Positions 2 to 23,425 of a stretch of DNA of 24,241 nucleotides are shown here, piece after piece (within the stretch, counting starts at the first letter, position 1; each line of letters begins with the position of its first letter). Where the stretch lies: positions 1 through 24,241 of IMG/VR virus record IMGVR_UViG_3300031689_000052, one strand, 5' to 3'. Both the position numbers and the translations under genes were made by a program. A model generated the notes under the pieces. The model saw only the letters and a program-made list of their open reading frames with translations. It did no database searches and had not been told where the DNA came from. The DNA comes from a virus. Lineage: Duplodnaviria; Caudoviricetes.

Positions 2-1672
2 TATTTGCAATACTCCTTTGATTACTGCATCTTGATATTTAGGTGATTTTTTATCTGCTTCTTTAGCTAATCTTATAGCTGTATTCTTAACTACAGATAC
101 TATAGCTCCTCCAAGTCCAATACCTCGTAATATACTATCGGACATACCGTTTACTATATTAAAGTATTTTTCATTTTTCTTTTCATCTTCTTCATCGTCA
201 TCAAACGCAATAGCAAATAATGCTTGCTGTAAAGCAGAGAATAAAAGGTTTTGTGCTACTCCATAGTATATGATCTTAGATATATTTGTTTTAGCATCTC
301 CTCGACCGTTCTTAAGGTCGCTAGCGGCTTTCTTAATTAGTCGCGCATATTGTGCTGGCGTGTTAGCAAAAGCTAGCACTACACGTCCTAATGGACCAGC
401 TTGTTGTTGACTGATTTTATCAGGTCTGCTTGACTGTTGAGACTCTTCTGCTATTTCTCTAAAATCTCTAAATGCTTGCTCTTCAGCTTCAGCTTCTGTT
501 AAGCCTTCTTTTTGTAAAGCTTTAATTCTATTTCTATAAAACGAAGCTCCACCTGATGCGATAGCGAAACTATCTGCTAATTGCGTAGGTAAGAAACCAG
601 CTTTAAGTATTCCAGCGATAACATTTCTAGCGCCATTTCCAGGGCCTTTAGCCATATCAGCGATATCAGCTTCGTTTACGTTTAGCTTTAAGCCGCTACG
701 TCTATCTAATAAAAACGGTGAATTGAATAGCTTTTTAAAGTCTTTCCAATATTGAGGTTGATTAGCAAATGCAACTCCAGCTTTTAATACGTTATTATCG
801 CTAAAGTTTATGAAGTTAACAGCTGATATAGTCTGCAATACAGCTGATCTAGTGTTAAAAAACATAATAGCACCAACTGAATTTGTTAACCAGTCTGTAA
901 ATCTAGCAGTTAGCTTATCAGAACCTGAGCTAGTATTTTTACCAGTACTCATTCTTTTAAGCATGTTCTCCATTGCTTCTCTATAAGGCTTACCGTAAGC
1001 AGCTTCAAGCTTGTTTAGATTAGCTTCAGAAAATATTTCATCTGCATTTTGCTGCCATACTTCTAAATACTTATCTCTTTTAACTGTATTTAAAGCTTTT
1101 ATAAAGTCTGTATCAATAGTTCCAGCAACCCAACCGCCATCAGGAGCAGCATATGCATCTCCTTTACCCATAGCTATTAATTGATCTGCAAAAACAGTTA
1201 AATCAGCATCGTTATTTACGTAGTCAACTAATTCTTGTTGATCTTTTTGAGATAATCCAGGCACTGTCATACCTTGTTTATCCCAAATAGCAACTCTTAC
1301 AGCTTGCTCTTTAGTGAAATCACTATCTTTTATTTTTTTACGTAAGTTTTTAGGTACAATTTTTAAAGCTTTTTTAAGGCCTTTAAAGTCTTGCATCAAT
1401 GAAACTCTATCGTTAGCTAAGTTTTCCATTGCTCTAGCAAATGGATTAAGCAAATGAGCTTTATACCAAGCCATTTGAGCATCTCCAACGTCACCTTTTC
1501 CTAAAGTAGAGTATAATAAACCTACAAAGTCTTCAGCAGACGGTGGAATAAAGAAATTAAATCTACCTTTATTAGCTCCAGCAACCTCAGCCTTAACTCT
1601 AGCATAAGTTTTATCTGATGCAATACCAGTTTTGTTTTCTATGATATCATTAAAATCTTTATCAAGATCTAA
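2..1672 (-). other. C-terminal helical domain of the giant protein, resembling large ejection-protein (gp16-like/LPD-type) C-termini
   Basis: FFIPPSAEDFVGLLYSTLGKG...GFLPTQLADSFAIASGGASFYRNRI...EESQQSSRPDKISQQQAGPLGRVVLAFANTPAQYARLI, followed by the hydrophobic segments IIYYGVAQNLLFSALQQALFAIAF and ILRGIGLGGAIVSVV. The family assignment is inferred. Confidence 0.5.
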
Positions 1673-4600
1673 TGATTTGCTAAATTTAAGTTCAGATTCT
1701 TGACTATCATTGTCAATCTTAGCCATTCTGTCTAACACATTATCATTTGTGTATTCTGCAGACTTACTAAATTTCACTTCAACTGGTAAAGCATTATTGT
1801 TTGATATTGCTGCTTTTTCTATTAACGGTGCAATTCCAATAAATTCATCTATTTCTTTTTGTGAATCAATTTTTTCACCTAATAATTGTTCTTTTATTAA
1901 TTCATTTTGAAAAGCTTGCGTTTCAGTATTTCTAAAATTAGATGCTACGGCTACCTTATAAATTTCACTAATAGGTTTACCATCAAAAGTAAGGTCATTT
2001 GAATTAAATCCTCCACCATTATTATTAACTTGAGAATTAAAGTATCTTTGTAAAGAAGGTAATACTTTAGAAAAATCACCAGTTTTTACAGCTTCTTTTA
2101 GCGCCGCGTTGAACTCTTCTGTCATTCCATTGCCGAGATCATAAGGGTCACCATAAGTTCCTTTTAAATCTTTAAGCTTGTTATTGTTGTAAGCTGTAAG
2201 ACCTAACATGTAAAAATTATCTCTAACAAATTGAAAATAGCCAGGTGTTTCTACGTTTCTATCAGCCATCATCTTGAATATATATTCACCTGCTTGATTT
2301 TGTTGCCAAACGTGTTCTTTTTCTGTTTTGTATTCTTTAAATATACGTTTCTTTTCTTCTTCTGATATTTTCCCTTCTTTATAATCTTTAGAAGCTTTGT
2401 TTTTCTTTTTTGTAAATTCTAAAAAATCCGCATCAACACCTCTAGGTACAGCTATTTGTCTTATTAGATGGTTACTAGAAGAGCTAGCTGTGTTAAAAAA
2501 AGCAGCTACAGAAGGAATTGTTTCAGGATTGCTATACATCATTTCTTGGAATTGAAGAAATATATATTTAGCTCCATCAAAATTATCTTTAACATATTGT
2601 TCATACTCTGCGGAACCAAGGTCTCTAAGAAATAAAACACCATTTTTTGTTTGAGTAAATCCTTTGTTCGCTACAGCAGCTTTTACAATTTTTCTTTCTC
2701 TATCAGTAAATTGTCTTTCTTTTGTTTTGTATATTTTTGTTAAATCTCCAAAAAAATCACCTGTAAAATATTGACCTCTTTTTAAAACCTTAGCTTTGTC
2801 TGTTGCATTTACGGAAGCAAAACCCGCCGCCGCCATTATCTCTACAGGAATCCATTGAGACCACACATCTGTTAAAATTTCGCTGTAATAATCTATATCA
2901 TTTTGATTATTAGGATTTAAAACTTTACCTTCAATACCTAAATCTTTTTGAAATTCTACACTTAATGTATCCAAAACCGATTTACTAAACTTTAAATCAG
3001 ATTGTTCTTTAGTTGTTTCTTTAGGCGTAACAATAAAAGTATCAACCTCTCCTTGTACTGGAGTAGTTTTAATTTGTTTATATTCCCATCCTAGCTCTTT
3101 AGAAAACCTATCAACCATAGCTTTGTAAAGTCTAGTTCTATTGCTTTCAGAACTATTAAACACAACCCCTTTAATGTTGTTTTCTTTTACAAAATCTAAA
3201 ACCGAATTAGCTACTATGCTAAAAGTTTTTATAGCGCTAGTTTTGCCTTCTAAAGATTTACCCGTAATATCAAGTCCACCGCCTTCATAGTCTTCAAATT
3301 CAACGCTTAATAACTCTTTAGTGTCTATGTTTTTAGCTTCAAGTTGTTTTTTTAATTCAAACTCAGCTTCAAAGTCGTCTGATATATCATTAAGCGGAAT
3401 AAGTTTTAATCCAAACTGTGTGTCACCTACTTTAAATTCTCCTTCAAAAGTAACATGACCAGTGTCTATGTTTTCGTTTTCTTCAAATGCTATATCTTGT
3501 TTAGTGCTTAGACTAAACTTTAAGGTAGGCGCTCTATCTATTTCAGATAATACTTTAGCTCTTTTAGCTGGTTCTATTTTACCTTCAGTAACCTCAGGAG
3601 CAGCGTCTTTAACTAACATTTCAGTTACAACATTAACTAAACCAGCTTTTCTCTTTTGAGTAAAAAATTCTTTAGCTTGCTCAAGCGTTGTAGGTAGTTT
3701 AGAAGACACTTTAGGTCCAGACTGTAAGTTAGTATCTTTTGGTAATATACCTTTGTTAACGGCTTCCCTAGCATCCTTAACGTTAAGCCTAGGACCTTGT
3801 TCAGCTAATACTTTTACTTTAGCCTCTCTTTCTAGTTTAACTAAATCCGATGCTGGCAAAGCTTTTAATACTTCTAATATATTTTTATTTAGAAATTGCT
3901 CGTCTATAGCTTTCTCTGTACCCATAAGATTAGATACAGCTTTACGTAGCTTACTCTCTCTAGCTTTTTTATTTACAGCTGTTTTAACTTTTTTACCAGG
4001 TAAATCACTACTTAATATTTCTCCTGAAACTTCTTTAGCTAAATCGTATATTTCATCGCCTTGCTTGATACCAAGAACTCTTCTAAGCTTAGAAGTAGCT
4101 TGTTTGTCAGTAGACACAACGTCAACTGCAATTTCTTCAGCAGCAACACCTTTAGCTTCAGTTACATCATCTGTAAATTCTTCACCTAGTATTCTTTTCG
4201 ACGCCTCTATAGCTCTAGCTGGTAAAAACTTATTTATATAAGCAGCCAATGGAACACCAGACTCAGGTTTATATTCTTTAATTAAATCTAATATACCACG
4301 TTTACCTGTTTCTACTTCGTCAGTAAGTAGCTGTCTGTCAAACCCTGGAGCTTGAGATCTTTTTTCTACTATTTTATTTGTTATAGGTTTAAACTGCTCT
4401 ATAATGTCAAAAGCAGCAGCTTCACCTTGTGCGTCATATAGTTCTTGAACCTTGTTAGAAGCCTGCTCGTTAGTATTTGATTTAACTATTTCTTCAAACA
4501 CAACTTCACCGCCTGTAGCTTCTACTATATCTTTACTTAAAGCACCTTGTGTTATACTTTTATTATACTCTCGCATAAAATCGTAAACATCTTTACCTGT

Positions 4601-6655
4601 GTTAAATTCTATTTTACTCCACCCAATTTTACGAAGCAAAGGAGTTATCAAGTCACCTATTTTTGTAAAAATATTTTCTTCAAAACTTATTTCTTTTTTC
4701 TGTATAGCGTCAGAAAAAGCTGTTAAATATTCATCTGGATTTTTTGCTAAATATTTATCACTATATAATCTATTGCCATTAGAGTCTTTAGCTTTTAATC
4801 TAGCTTCTACAGCTTTTTTTTGTGAACTATTCAACTGTGCTTTAAAGTTATCTATAATTTCTACTCCAGCTTGTCCGCTTGATATAGCGTTTTTTAATAT
4901 AGCGTGTAGTAGCTCATGACTTCCAACAGAAACAGCGCCAACTTTTGAAGCTCTTTCTTTATTGATTAAAACTTTATTACCAATAACAACACCATCTGCT
5001 TTTATGTTTTCTACTCCAACTCCTTTTGCGTTTCCAAAGTCCTCAGAATTTTCAAATACCTCAACTTCAAGACCGTATTTACTAGCTTCAGATTCCGTAA
5101 AAGCTATATCTTTATCTAATATACGTTGAGCGGCTACGCCGAATAAGTCTATATTAGCTTGATTTAAGCCTTCTATCTGATCTTTAGCTGTTTTTATTAT
5201 ATTCTCGTCAGTTTGATCTTTAACTACATTTGTTTTTTCAAGTATTTGCTCTTGATTAGAAGCATATTCAATAAGCTCTTCTGGAGTTAATTCGTTTAAA
5301 GATCTTGACACTTCACCCTTAGCTTTTACTATTTTTTGCTCTATAGCTTCCATTTGCTCTAAAATAACTTTTTTAGATTCTGGAGTGTTAGCATTTTTAA
5401 GAGATTTAGACAATTCAGATAACTGAGCAGCGCTACCTTGATATTTTTTTTGAATTTCTTGAGGAGTTAATATGTATTCTGCTCTACTTCTAGCAGCTGT
5501 AGAAGCACCCCCAATTTCAGATGCACTAGTTATATTACCACCTACAAAACCACCTATAATAAAAGCGTCAATAGACCTATTCCACATTTCACCAGTAGAA
5601 GTTTCTTTACCTAATTGAAGATTATCGAAAGCTATGCTCGTTAATTCAGTTGCAGCTTCAGAAGCTCCTTCTCCTAACGTACTTAATCCTAGTTTTTTAA
5701 TTAAAGATTCACTTCCTTTTTGTATAAAATCTTTAGCTGCTTTTACGCTTTGAGTGTTTTTAATAAAACCAGCTTTAGTGAGTAAACCTTTAGTTACTAT
5801 TTCAAAACCAGATTCAATAGCGCCACTTCCAATAGCATTCAAAGTTAAAGAACTTATAGCTTCTTCAGGATTATTTCGTAGTTCTTCGTCAAATTTATTA
5901 CCAGCCACGCTAGCTCCTAACATTGCAATGCCACCGTAGCCTGTAAAAGCAGCTAATAAAGATGGTATAGACTCTAAAGCTCCACCAACAGTGAGTTCAG
6001 CAGCTTCTGCATAATCACCGCTACTTATGGCTTGTGTTATGCTTTCGTTGTCAGTTTTTCTAACGCTTTTTGATAATATTTCTTCTAACTCTTTAAAACT
6101 ATCTGTAGAAGGTAACGTTAAAAATCCAGAAGGAGAACCAATATCTCCAGATTCTAACAACTCTTTTGCTATAATTTTTTCTTCAGGAGTAAAATCATTA
6201 TTAAAAGACATTAATCCAAGCATTAACATGTCTTGAGTCTGAGAAATTCCCTTTCCTGCTCCTACAAAACCTTTAGCTGTTCTAGCTGCTAATGATTCTA
6301 AAATATTAACTTCATCTTCATCTTCACCTTGCAGCTCTTCAAGTCTTTCTTTAGTAAAATTATCTTCTTTAGACATCTGCTTAGAGAACTTATTGTTCTG
6401 TAAGGATATTTTTTCATCTCTAGTTAAAGGAGTTTTGTATTTAGTTTCTTTTAATTCCAAAGAACCATCTTCCGATGGTGATTCCGTAATTTCGGACACT
6501 TCGGTTACATCCACAGACATGTCCTGATCTGTGGGAGTTGTCTTTCCCTCTTCTGTTTTGCTATCAGAATTATATTCTTCTATCACCAGCGCTATGGCTT
6601 CTTCAGACTCGCCGGCATCGATCATTCTTTGTACAATTTTTTCTAACTCGTCCAT
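2..6655 (-). CDS. Giant multidomain virion/DNA-ejection ('polyvalent') protein, >=2218 aa, 3'-truncated by the window edge
   Basis: Absent from the ORF track and translated manually. ATG at 6655 lies 3 nt after the stop of the 506-aa gene. It begins MDELEKIVQRMIDAGESEEAIALVIEEY and I found no in-frame stop down to position 2 (...KYQDAVIKGVLQI). It is last in the ejection cassette, the position of T7 gp16/P22 gp16. Confidence 0.92.
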   Translation of the reverse strand, partial: MDELEKIVQRMIDAGESEEAIALVIEEYNSDSKTEEGKTTPTDQDMSVDVTEVSEITESPSEDGSLELKETKYKTPLTRDEKISLQNNKFSKQMSKEDNFTKERLEELQGEDEDEVNILESLAARTAKGFVGAGKGISQTQDMLMLGLMSFNNDFTPEEKIIAKELLESGDIGSPSGFLTLPSTDSFKELEEILSKSVRKTDNESITQAISSGDYAEAAELTVGGALESIPSLLAAFTGYGGIAMLGASVAGNKFDEELRNNPEEAISSLTLNAIGSGAIESGFEIVTKGLLTKAGFIKNTQSVKAAKDFIQKGSESLIKKLGLSTLGEGASEAATELTSIAFDNLQLGKETSTGEMWNRSIDAFIIGGFVGGNITSASEIGGASTAARSRAEYILTPQEIQKKYQGSAAQLSELSKSLKNANTPESKKVILEQMEAIEQKIVKAKGEVSRSLNELTPEELIEYASNQEQILEKTNVVKDQTDENIIKTAKDQIEGLNQANIDLFGVAAQRILDKDIAFTESEASKYGLEVEVFENSEDFGNAKGVGVENIKADGVVIGNKVLINKERASKVGAVSVGSHELLHAILKNAISSGQAGVEIIDNFKAQLNSSQKKAVEARLKAKDSNGNRLYSDKYLAKNPDEYLTAFSDAIQKKEISFEENIFTKIGDLITPLLRKIGWSKIEFNTGKDVYDFMREYNKSITQGALSKDIVEATGGEVVFEEIVKSNTNEQASNKVQELYDAQGEAAAFDIIEQFKPITNKIVEKRSQAPGFDRQLLTDEVETGKRGILDLIKEYKPESGVPLAAYINKFLPARAIEASKRILGEEFTDDVTEAKGVAAEEIAVDVVSTDKQATSKLRRVLGIKQGDEIYDLAKEVSGEILSSDLPGKKVKTAVNKKARESKLRKAVSNLMGTEKAIDEQFLNKNILEVLKALPASDLVKLEREAKVKVLAEQGPRLNVKDAREAVNKGILPKDTNLQSGPKVSSKLPTTLEQAKEFFTQKRKAGLVNVVTEMLVKDAAPEVTEGKIEPAKRAKVLSEIDRAPTLKFSLSTKQDIAFEENENIDTGHVTFEGEFKVGDTQFGLKLIPLNDISDDFEAEFELKKQLEAKNIDTKELLSVEFEDYEGGGLDITGKSLEGKTSAIKTFSIVANSVLDFVKENNIKGVVFNSSESNRTRLYKAMVDRFSKELGWEYKQIKTTPVQGEVDTFIVTPKETTKEQSDLKFSKSVLDTLSVEFQKDLGIEGKVLNPNNQNDIDYYSEILTDVWSQWIPVEIMAAAGFASVNATDKAKVLKRGQYFTGDFFGDLTKIYKTKERQFTDRERKIVKAAVANKGFTQTKNGVLFLRDLGSAEYEQYVKDNFDGAKYIFLQFQEMMYSNPETIPSVAAFFNTASSSSNHLIRQIAVPRGVDADFLEFTKKKNKASKDYKEGKISEEEKKRIFKEYKTEKEHVWQQNQAGEYIFKMMADRNVETPGYFQFVRDNFYMLGLTAYNNNKLKDLKGTYGDPYDLGNGMTEEFNAALKEAVKTGDFSKVLPSLQRYFNSQVNNNGGGFNSNDLTFDGKPISEIYKVAVASNFRNTETQAFQNELIKEQLLGEKIDSQKEIDEFIGIAPLIEKAAISNNNALPVEVKFSKSAEYTNDNVLDRMAKIDNDSQESELKFSKSLDLDKDFNDIIENKTGIASDKTYARVKAEVAGANKGRFNFFIPPSAEDFVGLLYSTLGKGDVGDAQMAWYKAHLLNPFARAMENLANDRVSLMQDFKGLKKALKIVPKNLRKKIKDSDFTKEQAVRVAIWDKQGMTVPGLSQKDQQELVDYVNNDADLTVFADQLIAMGKGDAYAAPDGGWVAGTIDTDFIKALNTVKRDKYLEVWQQNADEIFSEANLNKLEAAYGKPYREAMENMLKRMSTGKNTSSGSDKLTARFTDWLTNSVGAIMFFNTRSAVLQTISAVNFINFSDNNVLKAGVAFANQPQYWKDFKKLFNSPFLLDRRSGLKLNVNEADIADMAKGPGNGARNVIAGILKAGFLPTQLADSFAIASGGASFYRNRIKALQKEGLTEAEAEEQAFRDFREIAEESQQSSRPDKISQQQAGPLGRVVLAFANTPAQYARLIKKAASDLKNGRGDAKTNISKIIYYGVAQNLLFSALQQALFAIAFDDDEEDEKKNEKYFNIVNGMSDSILRGIGLGGAIVSVVKNTAIRLAKEADKKSPKYQDAVIKGVLQI
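1673..3523 (-). repeat. Dispersed peptide-level repeat (L/V)KFS(K/L)S, 4 copies, in the giant protein
   Basis: LKFSLS (LKFS at 3512-3523, aa 1045), LKFSKS (2978-2995, aa 1221), VKFSKS (1760-1777, aa 1627) and LKFSKS (1673-1690, aa 1656). A weaker NKFSKQ lies at about 6377-6394. Confidence 0.8.
4184..4420 (-). other. Sigma70 region-2-like domain within the giant protein (aa ~746-824)
   Basis: AAFDIIEQFKPITNKIVEKRSQAPGFDRQLLTDEVETGKRGILDLIKEYKPESGVPLAAYINKFLPARAIEASKRILG matches by eye the sigma region 2 pattern AFxxLxxxYxPLVxxIA...EDLxQEGxxGLxxAxxxYDPxxGxxFxTYxxxxIxxxxxxxxR. Confidence 0.6.
4553..5074 (-). other. Zincin-like metallopeptidase domain within the giant protein
   Basis: A beta-rich lead-in (ADGVVIGNKVLINKE) is followed by VGSHELLHAIL (HExxH at 4904-4918, aa 580-584) and then NPDEYLTAFSD (E at 4730-4732, candidate third Zn ligand). 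Confidence 0.75.
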
Positions 6656-9349: not shown

Positions 9350-10816
9350 TTAATATGATGACTCTACATAGTCAGAAGATACAGCAAACAATTCTTTAGC
9401 ACCACCAACATCAGTAACTAAATCATTAGAAACAGTAACTGTAGCAAAATACCCTTTAATACCTGTCATATCAGCACCAAATAATACTTCGCCAGCTGTA
9501 GCCACGCTTGTATTAACTAAATTCGCCATATACTTGTTTTCTTTTCTATAAAATCCAGCATGATTTAAAGGAGGTATTAATGTTACTCCAGCACCAAACT
9601 CATTACCATAATCGTCATAAGAGCCTTCGTTGTAGCTATATGTTGCTGGCTTATTTAAAACAGCTGTAGTGTCTTGTGTTCCTAATCCATATTGATCTCC
9701 TTCTCTGAAAGCCGGAGTACCAACACTATGCACTCCCGTTATATCTGAAACAAAGCTATCAACTTGCCAACCATTGCTTCCTTCGTAATTAACCGTTTTA
9801 AACACTTTAGCCATGCTTACTTTTGGATTAAATACGAATTTTATACTAGATTTAAATTGAGTTCCATAAAAGTTAGATCTAATAGCTGGATTTTTATAAT
9901 GTAAATATAAAACACCATCCTTCATTGTATAGAAATCACTTTTCATGCTTATACCTTGATCTGGCTTGTAACTAAAGAAACTTGGAAAACCATTTATATC
10001 TTCATCAAAAGACAACGTATTATAAGTACCAGTGGAAGGCTGTAAAGATACAACGTATTGTTTAGTATGCATATCCCACGATCCTATTGCTTTACCTAAA
10101 GAAGAAGGAGTTGCGTCTAATGAGCTTAATTTATCTCTAAAATAGTCTGTCAAACCGTTTTTAGATATTTCAGTTAAACCATTACCAGATAATCTTAAAA
10201 CAGCATTACGATCTTTATCGGTAAAATATTTTCTATTACCATAAAAAGCAAAACTTTCAGGGTTTTTACTTATACCATATCTACCTTCATAAGGTTTAAT
10301 AGCTCCAATCACTACGTTTGAAGAGGTCACTGTACCACCACCTTCTGCAGAAAATATAGCGTTTTTATCTATAAGTGCACTGCTTACTTTAGATTCTTGG
10401 AAAATAGTTAAATTTGTATTTTCAGCGTATATTCTTTGTATAGATCCATTGGCTGGATTTAAACTTCTTGTTATATCGGTTCCAACAGAAAAAACATTTG
10501 TATCGTTTATACCTGTTCTAGAATTGAATATACCTGAATATATCAATGAACTACTTCTAATCTGAGCATTAGGTTCAGATTCTATTAGATAAGCTTTCAC
10601 GCCATAAGCATCTGAAACATTATTATAACCTCCTCTTATTCTGGACTCTTCAATCGCCCAGTTTTTAGAATTAGCAACAGCTGCTGGATCTACGTAAGTA
10701 ACATTACCATAAGTATTATCTCCTCTAGATCCATTCCAAATAGGTGCATCAGCTGCGCCATTTAATACTTTCCTAAGTATAAAGCTATTAAAATATTTTA
10801 CTTCTATCGCTCCCAT
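9350..10816 (-). CDS. Tail nozzle/stabilisation protein, C-terminal part (488 aa, beta-propeller-like)
   Basis: Contains SSLIYSGIFNSRTGINDTNVF, GSIQRIYAENTNLTIFQESKVS, YGISKNPESFAFYGNRKYFTDKDRNAVLRLS and KVFKTVNYEGSNGW. These motifs are typical of the C-terminal half of crAss-like muzzle/P22 gp10-like proteins. Confidence 0.7.
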   Translation of the reverse strand: MGAIEVKYFNSFILRKVLNGAADAPIWNGSRGDNTYGNVTYVDPAAVANSKNWAIEESRIRGGYNNVSDAYGVKAYLIESEPNAQIRSSSLIYSGIFNSRTGINDTNVFSVGTDITRSLNPANGSIQRIYAENTNLTIFQESKVSSALIDKNAIFSAEGGGTVTSSNVVIGAIKPYEGRYGISKNPESFAFYGNRKYFTDKDRNAVLRLSGNGLTEISKNGLTDYFRDKLSSLDATPSSLGKAIGSWDMHTKQYVVSLQPSTGTYNTLSFDEDINGFPSFFSYKPDQGISMKSDFYTMKDGVLYLHYKNPAIRSNFYGTQFKSSIKFVFNPKVSMAKVFKTVNYEGSNGWQVDSFVSDITGVHSVGTPAFREGDQYGLGTQDTTAVLNKPATYSYNEGSYDDYGNEFGAGVTLIPPLNHAGFYRKENKYMANLVNTSVATAGEVLFGADMTGIKGYFATVTVSNDLVTDVGGAKELFAVSSDYVESSY

Positions 10817-10851
10817 ATTATATTATCACTTATTAACTAATTAAATTACTA

Positions 10852-13800
10852 TTAGTAGAATGGTAATTCTACTGTATTAGGTAAAGACGTACCAGCTACT
10901 TTTTTATTACTAGAAAACTCAGCTGTCCATCTTCTTAAATGAGGATCAAAACCACCCGTTAAAGGATATGTACCATTTTGTAATCTGTTAGTAGTTGCTT
11001 GTATAAAAGAATTTTGATTACCTTTTGTTGTGTTTATATCGTCATCGTTATAACTACTGTAAGAATAAAAACCGTTAGTCAAAGTTTTAATGGTTGTCAT
11101 TTGAGGAGTTGTGTAAAAAAAGCTTACATATTTAAGTGACCATTCCCTAGCAAACACCTGTTGAGTTGGATTGTCACCAGATGCCTCAGCCGATGAAGTT
11201 CTACTATCATTGGAAATAAGGTATGTAAATACTGTATCCGTAGTATTGTTTGGATAATAAAAATCTCCAAAATCAATATTTACTTTTATTTTTTGATTTA
11301 TTAAATTAGGTCTAACTTTTACTTGAGTATTATAAACACAAACAGATGGACTAGGTACCACGTTATCCGCGCCAGTTCCCTCGCGACTAGTTGTTTCGTA
11401 CCCATTCGCTGGGTATCTAATTATTAATCTATATTCACCATGTTTAGTTGCTGTTCCGTATCCGTTTTGATCTTTACCTATAGCAAAAACTTTAGAAGAC
11501 ACGCTTTCAAGAAGAGGTTTGTCAAAATTACCAAATTCTCTAAAAGTTGTTGTAACTTCATTAAAATCAACTATATTAACTCCAGGGAATTCACCCGGCG
11601 TGTTAGCAATTAAATTACCTTCAACCTTAGAAGCATCGCATATTACTCCAGTTTCAACAGCAGTAGATCCAGTTGTAGGACTTAATTCATATGAATTTCT
11701 TTGAACACCACCTAAAGTTATATCTTGACCTTCAATGTCTATTGCTCGAACCCAATTATCACTACTACTAGCTCTATATTGAAGAAAACTAGGCCAAGCA
11801 ACTCCACCTGAAACTTGAGGTCCAATGTTGCCGAATCTGCTAGATGACCCGTCATTTTGCAATGGAAAAGATTTATATGTATAGTCTATTTTTATGTAAG
11901 CAGTTCCTTCGCTTAAAGCATGTTGTCCATTGTTATCATTTAATTGAGCTGATGGTCTACGATTTGTGTTTACAAAATCAACGTATCCTTCGTTGTTAGG
12001 GTATGGGCAATTAGTAAGTGCTTCAACTTCTTGATCTCTTACAGTATTAACTAAATTAGCGGTAGATAAACCAGTGTCGCTTAATGAAAGCCCAGTAATT
12101 GCTGCTCTTCCGCTTAGTACGTTTCTCATGCCTTCAGGTAAATTACCTTCAATTACATTTATCAATGAAGCATTGTTGTAATCATTAGACCAGTACATTC
12201 CTGATGATTCCATTCCTTCGTTTATAGTAACACCATCTCGTTTACCCCATCCTAGATTTATTTGCTCTTTACCAAACACAACGATAGCCGGAGCTGTTAC
12301 GGTTGCTCCTCCTGAATCTGTTAGATTAACGTTAAAAGAATAATTTCCTTCAGCACTAGCTTCTGGTTCTGAAAGTTCTCCATTAGTTGAATTTATTACT
12401 AAGGCCGGAATTAAACCAGCTACGGGTGCAGGTACTTGATCTGTTATACTCCATTCTAAATCAGTAGTGATAGTGTATGGGTTTGGTGGACCGACAGAGC
12501 CATTAACTCCAGAGTATGTTGTTATAACGCCACCACCGTACGTTGGAGATAATGTTATTGGCGCTAAAGGTGTGTTTTGTATTACTGGTGGCATATTTTG
12601 CAAACCTACAGTTACAGTTAGATCTGCTGGAACAGCACCAGCGGCTACAGCTGCAGAGCTAGTATTGAGCACGCTAAAAGTGAATACAAATCTTCTAGTT
12701 GCTTCAGCTATAGTATAATACTGAGAGTTTACGACGTTTAATCGCCATGTATTTATGTTTCCGTCAGGTTCTCCGGCCACTAAAGTCCAATCGCCAGTTT
12801 TATCATTACCACTTAAGTCTTTCACGCTAACTATAGTAACACTGCTACTTTCCATAGCAACAGAACCAAGTCCAGCTGGTAGTAAAGGGAAAAAATCTGG
12901 TGTGCTAGTAGCTGCAATCCCAGCTGTAGTTGCTTCTGTCTGTACAAAATTAAAGCTACTAAAGCCTTCTACTTGAGGTCCTGAGTCCACAGCGCTATTA
13001 AAGTCTGAAACTAAACCAGATGTAGAGGTTTCCCAAAATATATCTAATAAAGATTCTACTGGAACGGTTTCGTATACGCCTAAAGTAGTAGTAACTAATG
13101 TGGTTACCGCTGCTGGTTGTAAAGAACCTATTAAATTTCCAGACTGAGTAAGTCTAGCCATAGAGGGATTAGAAAGAGTTTGATATATAGAACCATACTC
13201 TACTATTGTTGTGCCTTGTGGAACAAAATCATTTTGAAGAGAAATAGTTGAAACAACATTACTAGTAGGAGGAGATATAGAAGTTATAACGGCTCCTGAA
13301 ACTGTTGCTGTTGTGGGATAATATGGTTGATTACCGCTGTATTGATTAGGATTTGCAGTTGTAATGTCTGGCGTTACTCTACCGTAAAGCTCTACACTAC
13401 TTCTGTACTGCTTTTGATTTGGTCCTACCTCTGTTAGATCTCTAGGTACTTTATTTATATTATCATTAAGTAAAGTTATAAAAGCTATTGTGCCGTTTGG
13501 ATCAGGTGGAGTTGTTGGAATATTTGGATAAAAGCCCATTATACCAGGTAAATAAACATTATAATATTCCTGCTCAGACTGTTTAACAACAATTTTATAA
13601 GAATACCATCCTAAAGGGTTATAAGAAGCACTAGTGGCATCTCCGTTGTAAACTCCAGGATAACTTGTCGTTGGATCAGCGTTAACGGGTATTTGTCCAT
13701 TTACAAGTAATTTCAGTGAATCACCAGGCCAACTAAATATATCATTAACAGGTGCACCTACGGGTAGAACTGGAGTTGGTTTGTAAGGATGATAATAAGT

Positions 13801-15300
13801 AGATCCTCCATAGGTTATACCTTGAGTATCTGTTATTTGAGTAGTTTTAACAGGAGATAATATCACAGTAGATTGTCTTCCGAACCTGTCAGATAAAACA
13901 ATACCTACTTGATAGTTTCTATTCTGTTTAACGGTGTGCATAGGATACTCTACTATACTAGTGTTGTTTAAAGATTGATTTGCATTACCTTGTGTGAAAG
14001 TTCCTTTTGCTGTTACGGCTACATCGTAGTCTATGCTATCAGGAGGAGTGTGTTTGTCTTGAAAATTACTATAAACAACTCTATTGCTTATGATTTCTTG
14101 ACCTAAAGCCTTAACTGGAACTCTATCAAAAACTCTTATTATTTCAGATTCAGGTAAAGTCTTGTATGGTTTACGAGATTGATAATTATATTTATAAAAG
14201 CCTTGACCATAACTGTTTAATGAATTATTTTCAGTTCCATCTTCGTTTAGACTAAAATCTACACTAGATACTGCTTCTAAAACCTTAACAGATAAACCAT
14301 CGGATTCTTTATATAAGAGCTCGATGTCTGTTACATGAAAATTACTTTTTAATTGATTAGCTTTGGAAGGAAGTGGAACATATAATCCTACGTTATTCAC
14401 TTTGTTTTCCATAAACTCAACTATAGTGCTTCTATAGGTTGAGTCTTCGTCTCCAGCTAAAAAATAACCATCTTGTTTTGGTATAAAGGCTGCTTGAGTA
14501 AACGGAGCCATTATAGAGTATTCTCCATCTATAAATTTAAACCTATAGCTAAAAGAAACAAATTTGTCTTCTAAGTAATCAGGATCTCCAGGCCACGTGG
14601 CATCATAAAAAGGATTATTTTTCGTTGGATCTGGTAAAAATTCAGAAGTAACATCTTGCATAGAAGTTACATAGGAGTTCACAGGCGCAGGTGCGTCATA
14701 ATATAAATCTATAGCTCTATAAGGATTGTATTTAGCTACAGAAACTGTTTCTTCATTTATATAAAAAGTTCCATTATCAGCTCTACTTACATTTAGTTTT
14801 CTAGGTTGGTTTCTATTATCCGTCCAAAACAATAAAGTATCTATAAGGTTTATGCCGTATATAGGATTATTTTGAGCAAAATTTAACCAAGCCCCTTCAG
14901 CTAATTTACTTACGTTTTTAGTTAGAGTATTGTATTCGTATATATAGTTTAAAGCGTCTGCGCTCCACACTATAGGAGTTTCATTAGCGGAAACAGTATC
15001 TACCCAATTTGTTAAAAAAACAAATATAGAACCAGTATTTACGTCTCCATACACGCCTATAGATTTAAGTTGAGCAGAGCCCGCGGGAACACCAGCTAAT
15101 GCATTAAAATCTATATTAGCTCCAACCGTATTTACAGCTGGACTGTTGCCAATTACATTTTCTAAAGCTCCTACATCTTGTCCCTCTGATTTGCTTACCT
15201 GTATGTTTATACCTTCTCTATATTCGCCTGGAGGTATAAGTCTATCGTCTAGATCTTGATTCATCTTAGACTTAATAAAAGCGTTTTTAACTTCAGCCAT
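10852..15300 (-). CDS. Tail nozzle/stabilisation protein, N-terminal part with a long variable Ig-like extension (1482 aa)
   Basis: Starts MAEVKNAFIKSKMNQDLDDRLIPPGEYREGINI and contains LLFWTDNRNQPRKLN, FSYRFKFIDGEYS, RVVYSNF, RNYQVGIVLSDRFGRQS and LDIFWETSTSG. The last ~700 aa are T/S/G/N-rich and beta-type. Confidence 0.75.
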   Translation of the reverse strand: MAEVKNAFIKSKMNQDLDDRLIPPGEYREGINIQVSKSEGQDVGALENVIGNSPAVNTVGANIDFNALAGVPAGSAQLKSIGVYGDVNTGSIFVFLTNWVDTVSANETPIVWSADALNYIYEYNTLTKNVSKLAEGAWLNFAQNNPIYGINLIDTLLFWTDNRNQPRKLNVSRADNGTFYINEETVSVAKYNPYRAIDLYYDAPAPVNSYVTSMQDVTSEFLPDPTKNNPFYDATWPGDPDYLEDKFVSFSYRFKFIDGEYSIMAPFTQAAFIPKQDGYFLAGDEDSTYRSTIVEFMENKVNNVGLYVPLPSKANQLKSNFHVTDIELLYKESDGLSVKVLEAVSSVDFSLNEDGTENNSLNSYGQGFYKYNYQSRKPYKTLPESEIIRVFDRVPVKALGQEIISNRVVYSNFQDKHTPPDSIDYDVAVTAKGTFTQGNANQSLNNTSIVEYPMHTVKQNRNYQVGIVLSDRFGRQSTVILSPVKTTQITDTQGITYGGSTYYHPYKPTPVLPVGAPVNDIFSWPGDSLKLLVNGQIPVNADPTTSYPGVYNGDATSASYNPLGWYSYKIVVKQSEQEYYNVYLPGIMGFYPNIPTTPPDPNGTIAFITLLNDNINKVPRDLTEVGPNQKQYRSSVELYGRVTPDITTANPNQYSGNQPYYPTTATVSGAVITSISPPTSNVVSTISLQNDFVPQGTTIVEYGSIYQTLSNPSMARLTQSGNLIGSLQPAAVTTLVTTTLGVYETVPVESLLDIFWETSTSGLVSDFNSAVDSGPQVEGFSSFNFVQTEATTAGIAATSTPDFFPLLPAGLGSVAMESSSVTIVSVKDLSGNDKTGDWTLVAGEPDGNINTWRLNVVNSQYYTIAEATRRFVFTFSVLNTSSAAVAAGAVPADLTVTVGLQNMPPVIQNTPLAPITLSPTYGGGVITTYSGVNGSVGPPNPYTITTDLEWSITDQVPAPVAGLIPALVINSTNGELSEPEASAEGNYSFNVNLTDSGGATVTAPAIVVFGKEQINLGWGKRDGVTINEGMESSGMYWSNDYNNASLINVIEGNLPEGMRNVLSGRAAITGLSLSDTGLSTANLVNTVRDQEVEALTNCPYPNNEGYVDFVNTNRRPSAQLNDNNGQHALSEGTAYIKIDYTYKSFPLQNDGSSSRFGNIGPQVSGGVAWPSFLQYRASSSDNWVRAIDIEGQDITLGGVQRNSYELSPTTGSTAVETGVICDASKVEGNLIANTPGEFPGVNIVDFNEVTTTFREFGNFDKPLLESVSSKVFAIGKDQNGYGTATKHGEYRLIIRYPANGYETTSREGTGADNVVPSPSVCVYNTQVKVRPNLINQKIKVNIDFGDFYYPNNTTDTVFTYLISNDSRTSSAEASGDNPTQQVFAREWSLKYVSFFYTTPQMTTIKTLTNGFYSYSSYNDDDINTTKGNQNSFIQATTNRLQNGTYPLTGGFDPHLRRWTAEFSSNKKVAGTSLPNTVELPFY

Positions 15301-15305
15301 TCAAT

Positions 15306-16529
15306 TTAGTATTTAATCCATTTAGATTTACCTCTAGCAATCTGAACAAACTCATTTAATTTTATATTTGATAAACGTATTTTAGCATTTCTAAGCTTAG
15401 CGCTTCTTTCGCGTCTTAATCTTTGAACTACATACTCTGGCTGATTTATTCTACTAGCTATAATAGCGTGTGAAATATGAGCGTATAAAGCCTCTTCTGC
15501 CATTTTAGGTATTTTCATATCTGCATCATAGCTAAGGCCGTCAGATATATACTCTAATACTATTATTTTATTAGCTAGATCACTTGAAAAGGACATCTTG
15601 CCTTCTCTTTCATTTATAGTAAACCATCCATTAATTTGAGCTGTCTCTGGTTGTAATCCAAATCGCTGACCAATATAATTATCTCCATACATGCCAGCAA
15701 AACCTAAGCCTTCGGAAGCTAATAAGCCTGCTAAATTACTCTGTGCAGCATTAACTTGTTCAAGATTATTAGCCGCCCATCTTTCTTCTGTTATAGAAGT
15801 TGTATCAATGTTTTCACCTTGATCATCTTGTATAGGTATGCCTTGGTTATCTTGACCAGGAATATTATAAGGATTTGTAGTAAGAGTCGTAGGGTATATA
15901 ATATGCTTAACACCTGATTGATCTATCCAAGACACGTTAACATAATTAACATAATCTTGCGGTAAAACAATGCTTAAATTAGCGGGCACAGTTAACTCTT
16001 GAGAATTTATACTTTTTAAAGTATCATAACTAAATTCTTGTAATCCTCTTTTAGCAAAAAACATTACATCAGTTGTTTTAGCACTTGGAATTAATTTTCC
16101 AGCACCAACATAACCTATCATAAAATTAGTTATTACGTCTTCTAGCGAAGTATATGCGTATCCACCGTAATTATCTTCAACAGTATCACCGTAAGCGTCT
16201 CTATCTCCATATTCACCGCCAAACTTACTAAGCAATTGAATAACAAACCATTCGTTAACTGGAGGTGCTACACCTAAAGTTATAACGTTATTCAAAACCG
16301 TGTAACTTGTTACATATTCAACAAAAGTACTTGGCACTCCAGTAGCGCTTACGTATAATCTAAAGTTATTGTTATTGTATTCAGCAGTGGTTGGATCAAA
16401 ACCTCCAAATATTAAATCAGTATTAAAAGTTGCGGTAATAGTAGTAGATCCGTTCTGCTGAAACGTTTGAGAGCCAGCGTAATATTGAGCATTTGTTTCG
16501 GTTATTATACCGTTATTTGGTGTTGCCAT
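15306..16529 (-). CDS. Head-tail ring/adaptor structural protein (407 aa)
   Basis: Contains AKRGLQEFSYDTLKS, LPQDYVNYVNVSW, IIVLEYISDGL and IPKMAEEALYAHI. The LPxDY and LEY..D..IP..EEA pattern is typical of tail-tubular/ring proteins, and the gene lies just before the nozzle. Confidence 0.65.
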   Translation of the reverse strand: MATPNNGIITETNAQYYAGSQTFQQNGSTTITATFNTDLIFGGFDPTTAEYNNNNFRLYVSATGVPSTFVEYVTSYTVLNNVITLGVAPPVNEWFVIQLLSKFGGEYGDRDAYGDTVEDNYGGYAYTSLEDVITNFMIGYVGAGKLIPSAKTTDVMFFAKRGLQEFSYDTLKSINSQELTVPANLSIVLPQDYVNYVNVSWIDQSGVKHIIYPTTLTTNPYNIPGQDNQGIPIQDDQGENIDTTSITEERWAANNLEQVNAAQSNLAGLLASEGLGFAGMYGDNYIGQRFGLQPETAQINGWFTINEREGKMSFSSDLANKIIVLEYISDGLSYDADMKIPKMAEEALYAHISHAIIASRINQPEYVVQRLRRERSAKLRNAKIRLSNIKLNEFVQIARGKSKWIKY

Positions 16530-16535
16530 ATTATA

Positions 16536-17336
16536 TTAGCTTTTTTTATTCATTTCATCAGCTTGCACTTTGCTAGCTGCAGCCTGTATAATTTCAGGAT
16601 CTCTTATTATGATACCAGCATACATAAGTATATTTAATATAACATCTGTTTGCTCTGATGGATGAAGTTCGAATTGAGTTGATCCTGTTAAGTTCTGATT
16701 AGCACCTTCTTGTGGAACATAAGCACTACTATTATATACGTATTGACCTAAAGTTCCAGGAGAAAATCCCCATCTAGGATTTGTAGGCGTTCTTACGAAA
16801 TCAATTTCTACACTAGTTTTTATAGAATCTGGTTTTATAAATATTTTTTGATTTTCATACAAATAAACAGGGTTTAAAGTTGTTGGTCTTGTTAGTTTAG
16901 ATGAATTTACATAATAAAAATCATGTCTATCAAGTCTTTGCACTTGTTTCTCTTTGTTATGAATAACATTACCTAGTCTATAAAAAGAAGATCCAGTAGG
17001 AGTGGAACTAGCGCTAAAGCTTATTTCTGTTCCATATATATCAACCGAGGGCAAAGTAAAATATGAAAGCGTAGGGGTTGGTGTTGTATATACTGCATCA
17101 CCAACTGTTTTGAATATAGCTATTTTTTCGTCAATATTTTCTTGTCTATCAGCGTAATCTGTATCCGCTTGAGGAACACGTAATTGCTGATTTAGATCAT
17201 CAAAATATTTTTCAAATATTTCTAACTGCACTTGTGTTGCTACTTTATTAAATTCAGTAGGTGTCATATAACCCCGCTGTTCTTTATTAAGTATCATTAA
17301 TACAGTTTGATATACTGTGTTTACGTTTATAGCCAT
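16536..17336 (-). CDS. Head-tail ring/adaptor (tail tubular A-like) protein (266 aa)
   Basis: Contains LNKEQRGYMTPTEFNKVATQVQLEIF, YFTLP, IDFVRTPTNPRW and FELHPSEQ. The gene is in the neck position. Confidence 0.65.
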   Translation of the reverse strand: MAINVNTVYQTVLMILNKEQRGYMTPTEFNKVATQVQLEIFEKYFDDLNQQLRVPQADTDYADRQENIDEKIAIFKTVGDAVYTTPTPTLSYFTLPSVDIYGTEISFSASSTPTGSSFYRLGNVIHNKEKQVQRLDRHDFYYVNSSKLTRPTTLNPVYLYENQKIFIKPDSIKTSVEIDFVRTPTNPRWGFSPGTLGQYVYNSSAYVPQEGANQNLTGSTQFELHPSEQTDVILNILMYAGIIIRDPEIIQAAASKVQADEMNKKS

Positions 17337-17353
17337 TGTTTATTTTTATTATA

Positions 17354-17380
17354 ATAAAGGAGGCATTACACCTCCCTTAT
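17354..17380 (-). terminator. Intergenic stem-loop, probable intrinsic terminator or processing site
   Basis: Minus-strand RNA AUAAGGGAGGU-GUAAU-GCCUCCUUUAU forms an 11-bp stem with two G-U pairs that pair only on the minus strand. An A/U-rich tail follows. Confidence 0.6.
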
Positions 17381-17392
17381 TAATATTACATG

Positions 17393-18157
17393 TTATGCGA
17401 ACTTTTTCTCTATAGATTTAAATATTTCTAAACCTTCATCTGTTTTAAAGAACGCTGCCATAGCTGAGTATGGATTCTCATCAAAAGGTACTGTCATTAG
17501 CTTTCTTCCATTAGAGGCCCAATTAAATGTTCTTTGATCATCTGCAAGCTTAAGTATGTTAGCCTCTGTAGCTCTGATAGCAAAGTTTCTTAATTGAACA
17601 TTATCATCATTAGCTAGTTCTAAGAACATTGAAGGGTTTCGCTGAGCAAATAATAAGATATCTCTTTTTATCTCCTTAGAACTCATGCTAGTAACTCTAG
17701 ATCCTACTTCAACTCTCAATATAGCTTCCGCTTGATCTATGTCCATACTTCTAGCAGCATTTAACGCGTCGATTGATAATTCTAAATCACCTAATTCATC
17801 TTCAGCAACCTCAATAGGATCATGTTCTCTAAACTTGACATCTTTCAAAGGATGATATAGTGATAGTATTTTTTGTAAAGCTTGGTTTTCTTTTTTAACT
17901 TCCATAGTTCCATCTCTAAATATGATATGGCCTAATGTAGCTTCACCAGCTTGCTCATCTTTAAATGGTGAGTTTTGATTTGTTGCATAACGCAATTCTC
18001 TCTGCTCGTTTTTTTCCGAATCAAACCATAACAACGTGTGTCTAGTCGTATGCCTTGATGGTATTTTGTAAGTTAAAGGACTATTATTATGTCCTGTTAA
18101 ATAGTAATTTCTGTCTTTGATCTCCCACGAGGAAGAGTTTGTAGCTTTTTTAGCCAT
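17393..18157 (-). CDS. Conserved phage protein of unknown function downstream of the major capsid gene (254 aa)
   Basis: Intact ORF (WEIKDRNYYL, RELRYATNQNSPF, helical C-terminal half) flanked by two hairpins. I recognised no catalytic motif. Confidence 0.7.
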   Translation of the reverse strand: MAKKATNSSSWEIKDRNYYLTGHNNSPLTYKIPSRHTTRHTLLWFDSEKNEQRELRYATNQNSPFKDEQAGEATLGHIIFRDGTMEVKKENQALQKILSLYHPLKDVKFREHDPIEVAEDELGDLELSIDALNAARSMDIDQAEAILRVEVGSRVTSMSSKEIKRDILLFAQRNPSMFLELANDDNVQLRNFAIRATEANILKLADDQRTFNWASNGRKLMTVPFDENPYSAMAAFFKTDEGLEIFKSIEKKFA

Positions 18158-18189
18158 GATAAAATATAATTAAAAATTAAAGAATAAGA

Positions 18190-18229
18190 GTAGAAGTTAC
18201 CCCCGTTGATTTAACGAGGGTAAATCTAC
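18190..18229 (-). terminator. Intrinsic terminator after the major capsid gene
   Basis: Minus-strand RNA UUACCCUCGUU-AAAUC-AACGGGGGUAA forms an 11-bp stem with one G-U pair, extendable by GUAGA/UCUAC. The U-rich UCUUAUUCUUUAAUUUUU follows, and the hairpin starts 8 nt after the capsid stop. Confidence 0.75.
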
Positions 18230-18237
18230 ACTAGTTA

Positions 18238-19728
18238 TTATAGTCCTTGAAATAAAACAAAGTTATTAGCAGCTTGTACTACTAAACATCTTTCAGACAA
18301 GAAGTTAACTTGCATTGCATCTAATTGAGATGTAAATGCGCCTCCAGCTGATCCAGTTAACCAAGACTTCATACGACGATCTTCAGTTTCTGAAGCTCTG
18401 TATCGCACGTGTAAGAATGGTCTACGGATATTTGTTCCTAGAATTTGATCGTAAACTGTTGAAGTTCCAGCAGGAACAAGAACACCTTCGATTGAGCTAG
18501 TACCTACTTGAGCACCACGAGTTGTAGCGTCGTTCAAGTATTTCCAGTCAGTTTTATAGAAGTCATAAGATCCTCTGCGGAAACCACTAAATCCAAGATT
18601 TAATGCCATTTCTTCAGAGTTTTCAAATAATCCATAAGCTGTACCACCTTGGAATCCAGAAGAAATTGCTCCTAACATATTATCAAAATCTAAAGACGTT
18701 TGACGTTGTAAGAATAACATGTTTTCTTCAATAGCTCCTTGAGTATCTAAGTTTTTAAGGATTTCATCGAAATCATCTAAACCACCAGCTCCTGAGAATC
18801 CAACCTCTACATTACCTCTTTGTTGAATAGCAGCAAATAAACCTTGAGTACCATTCATTCCGACAGCAAGCGCACCACTAGCAGCAGCGGCAAGTTCACC
18901 TTCAATTATGGACATTTCAAGATAATCTTCAAAACGCAAGCGAGTTTCAGATTCAGCTTTTAAGTACCATAAATATCCAGATGTTCCGTCTTCAGCAGCA
19001 ACTTCTACCCAACCGATTTGAGCCATATCCGATCCGTTTACAACGTATTCGTTTCTGATAATAATAGGATTGTTAGAAAATTGAGTGAACGAAGGAGTAA
19101 TACTAACTTGAGGTTGAATAGCATTGTTTAATGCGTTTGCTCCAGCGGCAGCACCTACAGTGCTAGATCCTTTTAAGAATTCTGAACCATAAACAAACAT
19201 TTTTACAACAGATCCCACTGCAATTCCAGCGGCAGCTAGAGTAGCAAATTGATAAGGTGCAACAACAACAAGACCACCTGCAGCTCCAGGTGTTGTATTA
19301 CTAGCTGTAACAACACATTTTGCTTCGTTTCCAACTGCATCCATGATAACTACTGTTTGACCAGGAGATATTACATTTATAATAGCAGGAACAACTCCAG
19401 CAGCAGTTTGAACGATTTGAATTTGGCCTCCAGCTGCATTAGCTGCTGTTACCACATTAGAGTAAGCAATATGTAATCTATTTTGTTCTGACCAAATTAC
19501 TTGATCTGAAGTCATTGGAAGCTCTGCTCCAACCATACGTAGAAATCCTGAAAGAGTTCTGTTACCGTAACGCTCTACCTCTTGTTCGTAAACTTCAGGT
19601 AGGTATTGCTGAGCAAAGCTAGAAAAGTTTGCCCCTGCAGCATTGTTAAATTGTAAATAATTAGTTTGTAGCAGCTGCTGAGCTTGCGACGGCACTAACG
19701 AGCCAAATTGTGGTTGTAAATTACCCAT
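18238..19728 (-). CDS. Major capsid protein (496 aa, HK97-type fold with an A/G/V-rich insertion)
   Basis: Contains FAQQYLPEVYEQEVERYGNRT, SDQVIWSEQNRLH, YLWYLKAESETRLRFEDYLEMS, GTQGLFAAI and LNLGFSGFRRGSYDFYKTDWKYLND. It follows the portal and scaffold genes and precedes a terminator. Confidence 0.85.
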   Translation of the reverse strand: MGNLQPQFGSLVPSQAQQLLQTNYLQFNNAAGANFSSFAQQYLPEVYEQEVERYGNRTLSGFLRMVGAELPMTSDQVIWSEQNRLHIAYSNVVTAANAAGGQIQIVQTAAGVVPAIINVISPGQTVVIMDAVGNEAKCVVTASNTTPGAAGGLVVVAPYQFATLAAAGIAVGSVVKMFVYGSEFLKGSSTVGAAAGANALNNAIQPQVSITPSFTQFSNNPIIIRNEYVVNGSDMAQIGWVEVAAEDGTSGYLWYLKAESETRLRFEDYLEMSIIEGELAAAASGALAVGMNGTQGLFAAIQQRGNVEVGFSGAGGLDDFDEILKNLDTQGAIEENMLFLQRQTSLDFDNMLGAISSGFQGGTAYGLFENSEEMALNLGFSGFRRGSYDFYKTDWKYLNDATTRGAQVGTSSIEGVLVPAGTSTVYDQILGTNIRRPFLHVRYRASETEDRRMKSWLTGSAGGAFTSQLDAMQVNFLSERCLVVQAANNFVLFQGL

Positions 19729-19737
19729 AATCTTTTT

Positions 19738-20982: not shown

Positions 20983-21010
20983 GATAAAATAATATAAAAT
21001 TAATAATTCC

Positions 21011-23422: not shown

Positions 23423-23425
23423 TTA

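Follow-up and report, generated by a model that had tools for sequence, protein, structure and literature searches.

To our knowledge, phages start transcription with either the host holoenzyme or an injected polymerase. In crAss-like phages, a giant last ejection protein starts early transcription, and the T4 late factor gp55 is a small stand-alone protein coupled to the sliding clamp. In phage N4, early transcription is started by a giant virion RNA polymerase (available text of PMC13434306), which carries an MPTase domain (available text of PMC5512222). T4 gp55, which works with gp33, is a phage sigma cut down to domain 2; it docks on the β′ coiled coil, and the place of sigma4 is taken by a separate part (available text of PMC2988020). 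The polyvalent proteins with zincin MPTase hubs are large and carry variable cargo, and their injection and autoproteolysis have been proposed (Iyer et al. 2017, PMC5512222, available text); the word sigma is absent from the main text of that paper, in the portion available. Here we describe a conserved sigma2 module in a giant phage protein, which is apparently undescribed, since no description of a virion-borne sigma domain was found in the literature searched, subscription papers being mostly outside its reach. Its closest precedents are T4 gp55/gp33 and the virion RNA polymerases.

The DNA analyzed here (the window, 24,241 nucleotides) is part of a genome and is 38% complete; the early region falls outside it, and relatives' genomes were therefore used for the early-region questions. 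The window is a minus-strand podophage structural operon of flavobacterial type, running from terminase, portal, probable capsid and structural genes through a crAss-like muzzle and genes of 133, 246 and 506 aa to the giant ORF (Table 1). This gene order matches that of phi38:1 and the elemo phages, and the syntenic counterparts of the giant protein, phi38:1 gp101 and elemo gp21, are both annotated 'structural protein'. The N-terminal part of the giant protein matches elemo gp21 (aa 228-379; E = 3e-3, and 1e-6 in a second search), and homologues of the window protein match phi38:1 gp101 (E = 3e-18), which is not mentioned in the available text of PMC13288928. The likeness in structural gene order and in N-terminal homology of the giant protein covers the Pervagoviridae (phi38:1), Elemovirus, the Pachyviridae and Maribacter phage Panino. 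Judged from gene position and homology, the giant protein is probably an ejection/cargo protein, and the 506-aa and 246-aa products, the positional equivalents of phi38:1 gp100 and gp99, are by synteny probably smaller ejection proteins. The muzzle-type protein, a single gene in phi38:1 and elemo, is split in the window (9350-15300), where the 1482-aa and 488-aa genes match different parts of phrog_14478.

Table 1. Features of the window, numbered from its first nucleotide; aa positions refer to the giant protein
Feature	Position	Strand	Basis or remark
Conserved C-terminal region, aa ~1640-2218+	2..1738	-	homologue alignment
Giant multidomain polyvalent-type protein, at least 2218 aa	2..6655	-	ORF list; 3' end beyond the window; final structural-operon gene
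DUF6934-like cargo domain, aa 1101-1192, flanked by KFS motifs (aa 1046, aa 1222)	3080..3355	-	Pfam E = 8e-6, just below cut-off
Folded domain, aa ~856-1048, ends in KFS motif; no recognised fold	3512..4090	-	homology, AF2
Sigma70 domain-2-like module, aa ~726-840: 1.2-like helix, regions 2.1-2.4 (aa 747-821), acidic linker	4136..4480	-	
Zincin-like HExxH domain, aa ~562-704, HELLH at 580-584; directly precedes the sigma module	4544..4972	-	
Two genes ahead of the giant ORF, 506 aa and 246 aa	6659..8936	-	synteny only
Upstream structural operon: terminase, portal, putative scaffold, probable major capsid protein, structural genes, crAss-like muzzle	9350..24241	-	

We infer that the host is a flavobacterium because, in the phage collection, the capsid and portal matched only Flavobacteriia phages and one uncultured record (41-47% and 26-50% identity, respectively, among the matches listed), one relative was assembled in a Flavobacteriaceae MAG, and the gene starts are A-rich, with no obvious Shine-Dalgarno sequence. 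A module-bearing phage in a Flavobacteriaceae MAG is represented by loci L120 / L121 on contigs of 117 kb and 6 kb. Matches to Parvibaculum and Arcobacter MAG contigs were taken as probable mis-binning and not as hosts.

An earlier note on this DNA had likened a peptide of the giant protein, aa 747-821 of the ORF at 2..6655 (minus strand, nt 4417-4193), to sigma70 region 2 and had named PF04542 as the family to compare it with. The window segment has no Pfam Sigma70_r2 match, and on its own it matches nothing in direct Pfam, PHROGs and PDB sequence searches; weak PF04542 matches were found in two of the 37 members of the module alignment (best E = 0.0017), below the curated cut-off. The family likeness did not appear at the curated cut-off but did appear between profiles: HHalign matched the 37-sequence alignment, whose members are 10-77% identical to the window, to 29 real sigma2 domains (24 from a Flavobacteriaceae genome and five from E. 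coli) with P = 3e-5 over 70 columns. Scanning the protein in 36 profile windows singled out 721-840 (P = 2.5e-5); the runner-up reached 0.0024, and P in the reversed-profile control was never under 0.052. In NCBIfam, the window segment matches the SigI model (E = 0.0066), and sigma factors make up 13 of the 21 families matched by the alignment members. Among the ESM Atlas features, Sigma70_r2 stood at 0.96 and was present in 20 of the 30 hits. When the AF2 model of the module (pLDDT 82) was compared with 48,161 solved chains, the top 24 rows were all sigma factors or transcription-complex chains, counting four whose titles do not name sigma and which were assigned by inference. For a helical bundle, Z values of this size (6.0-8.5) are modest, and the weight of the fold search therefore rests on the unanimity of the neighbours; the best Z of 8.5 has an rmsd of 8.7 over 102 aligned residues, and 8b3z_A and 4x8k_A gave Z 7.6 (rmsd 3.0, 80 aligned) and Z 7.5 (rmsd 2.5, 88 aligned). 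A PDB profile search was suggestive at most (sigmas in 5 of 11 hits, best E 0.12, a designed protein as the top hit), and Foldseek against viral models returned nothing at E ≤ 0.001, its named hits being mostly sigmas. The agreement of the controlled profile-profile match, the language-model features and the predicted fold confirms the sigma70 region-2-like domain of the earlier note: aa ~726-840 is a real but very diverged sigma70 domain 2.

Like Sigma70 domain 2 (PF04542; SigB 8x6g, FliA 6pmj, SigE 8b3z, SigA 4x8k), the module has the predicted helical fold and the 2.1-2.4 order, and, mapped to sigma70, it keeps the aromatic positions of F419, F427 and Y430. The F419 position is Y or F in all 37 alignment members, and 35 of 37 have an aromatic residue at the Y430 position. 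K809/F810 stand in place of the W433/W434 pair, which is also replaced in most of the 29 host sigmas aligned. The DxxQ core-binding motif of region 2.2 is only partly kept, being lost in the HHalign register and retaining its D in the ungapped register against 8b3z. Unlike the Sigma70 family, the module scores under the family cut-offs, has an insertion in 2.2 and is embedded in a protein of more than 2200 aa in which no sigma4 was detected: the 36 profile windows gave no sigma4 match (best P 0.0098; the C-terminus lies beyond the window), and none was listed in the fold search of aa 816-1048. The module shares its sigma2-only make-up with T4 gp55, whose chain 7d7d_F ranked 13th in the fold search, and differs from it in being fused into the giant of a structural operon and in probably acting early.

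The module is also conserved. A search with the peptide gave 49 close loci, and a separate set of 63 loci was collected by the C-terminal region so that selection bias would be avoided. Among the latter, aa 761-840 aligned in about half, with an identity of 0.64-0.68 against 0.25-0.40 upstream, which places the module among the most conserved parts of the protein where it aligns; at the remaining loci, this slot is filled by divergent sequences that follow the same pattern. A broadened profile, built partly from these loci, finds the module in 58 of the 63, and the five misses are two truncated proteins, one split gene, from a genome in which a 1979-aa frame matches Sigma70_r2, and two sigma-like sequences with an insertion. 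The conservation that the earlier note had made a test of its proposal thus extends to 58 of 63 homologues chosen without regard to the module, in the same slot across subtypes. With the close-relative profile, 332 clusters were found in a 50% identity library, the full-length matches listed being ~1900-3100 aa. The module subtypes are only 10-30% identical to one another. Among single loci, subtypes appear swapped between otherwise close proteins (L108 versus L045/L076; L066 versus the window), L053/L054 have a large insertion inside the module, and in genome G027 (locus L089) the giant gene comes in two pieces, the 1979-aa frame, which holds the sigma2 match, and a C-terminal gene of 968 aa.

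The surroundings of the module follow the order HExxH domain, sigma2, linker, uncharacterised domain, KFS motif. The HExxH domain is present directly before the module in 152 of 160 non-redundant homologues, with HExxH intact in 142, and can be labelled MPTase-like by analogy (PMC5512222, available text). A region homologous to the post-module domain occurs in 225 of 227 module-bearing proteins and varies widely. Its AF2 model is confident (pLDDT 88) and has no clear fold neighbour, the nearest being a designed protein (Z 5.9, rmsd 3.8, 80 aligned), and there was no usable Atlas hit; we consider this domain a candidate binder of the upstream promoter element described below. A KFS-type motif lies 170-320 residues past the module in 90 of 160 homologues (shuffled rate, 3.4 per 30-residue bin), whereas a KFS site ahead of the module is confined to 15 of the 160 and is absent from the window protein. 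The middle region of the giant protein is variable cargo and poorly conserved; in one homologue (L103, aa 2072-2226) an AAA_33/Zeta-type kinase domain stands as cargo. In its size, its putative MPTase-like HExxH domain and its variable cargo domains, the giant shares the features of a polyvalent protein, and it differs from these proteins in that Pfam found no ART, GNAT or RNAP domain in it. It resembles the virion RNAPs of N4/Schitoviridae and crAss-like phages in being, as its genes suggest, a giant last ejection protein. Unlike them, it would borrow the host core RNAP: a motif screen of 192 giant homologues found no RNAP two-barrel catalytic motif, and neither the window protein nor 18 other giant proteins had a polymerase Pfam match.

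The earlier note had also suggested modelling the module with the β′ clamp of core RNAP. The complex of the module with a Flavobacteriaceae β′ clamp was predicted at 0.42, against 0.00 for the best control, and passed the docking mark. The same mark is passed by 116 of the 157 solved pairs and by 2 of the 215 mismatched ones, but passes at 0.60 or under come from only 18 solved pairs and from both mismatches. The runs agreed in at least 90% of contacts, and the pLDDT of the partners was at least 81. The sigma2-clamp complex is a textbook complex, and the pass may therefore reflect memory of solved holoenzymes. The prediction lends weak support to docking of the module on the β′ clamp.

The relatives also encode a second sigma, missed in the earlier note. 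A Sigma70_r2 match is present in 24 of the 32 relatives' records and in 17 of the 18 near-complete ones, nearly always in a separate gene of ~250 aa whose product carries both sigma2 (P = 1e-9) and sigma4 (P = 7e-8). A derivation of the module from this stand-alone sigma was not supported (P = 0.056, with 4 of the 11 rows of the stand-alone alignment being mis-framed fragments).

We read the genomes of 15 module-bearing relatives in full for motifs, and two classes emerged that we regard as private and promoter-like. Class I, ACAAACTAAATACGA-N9-GATAATA, is found on the early strand of 14 of the 15 genomes in 1-10 copies (at most 0.25 expected), and the fifteenth has 9 variant copies. In the 14 genomes with the stand-alone sigma gene located, 69 class I copies lie upstream of this gene and 5 downstream. 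Class II, (G/T)TAAA-N14-WGTRANTA, was derived from late-gene leaders, so its late-strand count is circular (23 late-strand sites, 16 of them near a start, and 13 early-strand sites, with 11.5 expected in total). In 11 of 14 genomes, class II starts within 11 nt of the sigma stop codon, at sites outside the pattern derivation. The two classes differ in both elements and in spacing, suggesting two readers. Upstream of genes, the flavobacterial sigmaA box, TAnnTTTG (PMC9723704, available text), stays at background in the 15 module genomes (19 versus 16.1 shuffled) and enriched in five relatives without the module (60 versus 11.2); the per-genome rates of the two groups do not overlap (P = 1e-4 by genome). 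These five tested relatives, of the Pervagoviridae/Elemovirus/Pachyviridae/Panino type, lack a Sigma70_r2 gene, a convincing module and any strict class I site. Weak profile hits to the module in phi38:1 gp101 (5.2 bits, E 0.0076) and Panino (E 0.016) were unconvincing.

The base before GATAAT (-13) is G in 57 of 61 sites from 13 genomes with the window-type module and in 9 of 49 sites from 9 genomes of other types; one intermediate genome (T in 9 of 9 sites) was kept out of both groups. On the tree of 19 stand-alone sigmas, which omits four genomes without an extracted sigma, this covariation amounts to about two independent contrasts. Genomes G024 and G028, which have the related L083/L097 module type, show the variant GATTAT at 2 of 4 and 4 of 8 class I sites, respectively. 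Among 32 partial contigs, 19 matched the pattern, a result left unscored because many of the contigs have no early region, and the RNA runs, available as contigs with at most 0.15 of words shared, were uninformative on start sites.

In the window, one class II match (3996) lies inside the giant ORF and is at chance level (0.4 expected). Class II-like variants that fail the strict pattern were seen by eye on the minus strand at 10816-10852 and 17336-17393, upstream of the 488-aa and 266-aa genes. Two further elements were noticed in the relatives. An inverted repeat (GTGACA, ~30 nt, TGTCAC) is found at two places in each genome, one directly ahead of the first late gene and the other ahead of the gene that comes before the stand-alone sigma (G005, 29056-29130 and 37600-37665 in oriented coordinates, with equivalents in G024, G009, G006 and G018), and is possibly an operator, origin or packaging signal. 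tRNA-like T-arm elements (GGTTCGA.TCC...CCAC) stand directly before several early genes in G005, G006, G007, G010, G019 and G029.

The sigma domain, together with private early motifs in place of host-type ones, suggests that the phage likely injects the giant protein for its own transcription. The order of class I, sigma gene and class II, with host-type motifs at background, implies that class I needs to be fired at entry, for which the injected sigma2 module is the simplest candidate. We therefore favour, with a probability of roughly 0.6, that the injected module starts class I transcription with the host polymerase and that the second sigma then takes over. The giant protein would be packaged with the DNA and ejected into the host, where the HExxH protease might release or trim the module at KFS motifs. 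The module would then bind host core RNAP at the β′ clamp, with sigma2 opening GATAAT and another part, possibly aa 856-1048, holding the upstream ACAAACTAAATACGA element. Early transcription would yield the stand-alone sigma2+sigma4 factor, which would read class II at the replication and late genes.

Several observations stand against this reading. In its occurrence, class I is tied as closely to the stand-alone sigma as to the module, and its bipartite form with an 18-bp spacer suits a sigma2+sigma4 protein. The module subtypes are only 10-30% identical, and the domain that follows the module differs widely too, yet GATAAT is nearly constant. The partial DxxQ, the replaced tryptophan pair, the two or so contrasts behind the -13 covariation and the small share of homologues with a KFS site ahead of the module also count against it. 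Sigma2 cannot reach the upstream element, and the profile windows revealed no sigma4. The stand-alone sigma is the main rival reader of the early motif and could read both promoter classes.

The first alternative is that the module is a tether by which the injected protein holds host core RNAP where the DNA enters and aids transcription-driven DNA uptake, class I being read by the host holoenzyme or by a co-packaged stand-alone sigma. It would account for the hydrophobic core and aromatic positions being kept (F419 position in 37/37, Y430 position in 35/37), for specificity positions that differ among subtypes while the motif does not, and for the lack of sigma4 in the 36 profile windows. We consider it unlikely, because class I resembles neither the host sigmaA consensus nor the ECF CGT box (PMC9723704, available text), the class I sites come before the stand-alone sigma gene and class II comes after it, and the -13 base tracks the module subtype.

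Alternatively, the giant protein might work late, from new copies, or might not be injected at all; low-level host transcription would produce the first stand-alone sigma, which would read both classes in a feed-forward manner. The virion location of the giant protein is presumed from gene position and homology, and the stand-alone sigma is complete (sigma2 and sigma4), is present in 17 of 18 near-complete genomes and has five class I sites downstream of its gene. Against this, the differences in both elements and spacing between the two classes suggest two readers, and the syntenic homologues are annotated as structural, which makes late action improbable.

Ejected proteins reach the cell in few copies relative to cellular RNAP, and this low number weighs against a module that merely occupies the β′ clamp and displaces host sigmaA, host transcription being off until the phage sigma accumulates. 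Such a role would suit a sigma2-only module without the tryptophan pair, and a protein of polyvalent type with variable effectors as its other domains (PMC5512222, available text). It would leave the first genes without transcription, host-type motifs being at background, and we find it highly doubtful. Of the three functions that the earlier note had suggested, redirecting host RNAP to phage early promoters has genomic support, whereas a pure decoy fits worse because it leaves the reader of the private early motif unexplained. Last, a non-functional relic or convergent helical bundle, for which the lack of a Pfam match at cut-off and a best structural Z of 8.5 within the chance range for helical bundles could be cited, is very improbable given that several independent methods point to sigma2, that identity is 0.64-0.68 in the module against 0.25-0.40 upstream and that the slot is kept across subtypes.

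In its fullest form, the favoured reading describes a virion-delivered sigma in a widespread marine flavobacterial phage clade, in which sigma2 and a new upstream-element-binding domain, released from the giant by its own protease, would capture host RNAP at private early promoters and set off a two-sigma cascade that is the phage's own and goes around the host housekeeping sigma; we hold this complete version tentatively, at somewhat less than an even chance. The fragment of ~330 aa, the two promoter classes and the second sigma form a compact system that could serve as orthogonal expression parts in Bacteroidota. The module offers a substantial chance of a new way to start phage transcription. 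An injected sigma, if true, would be a third route to start phage transcription, spanning a large uncultured marine clade (the 332 clusters at 50% identity), and it would make early expression independent of host sigma regulation.
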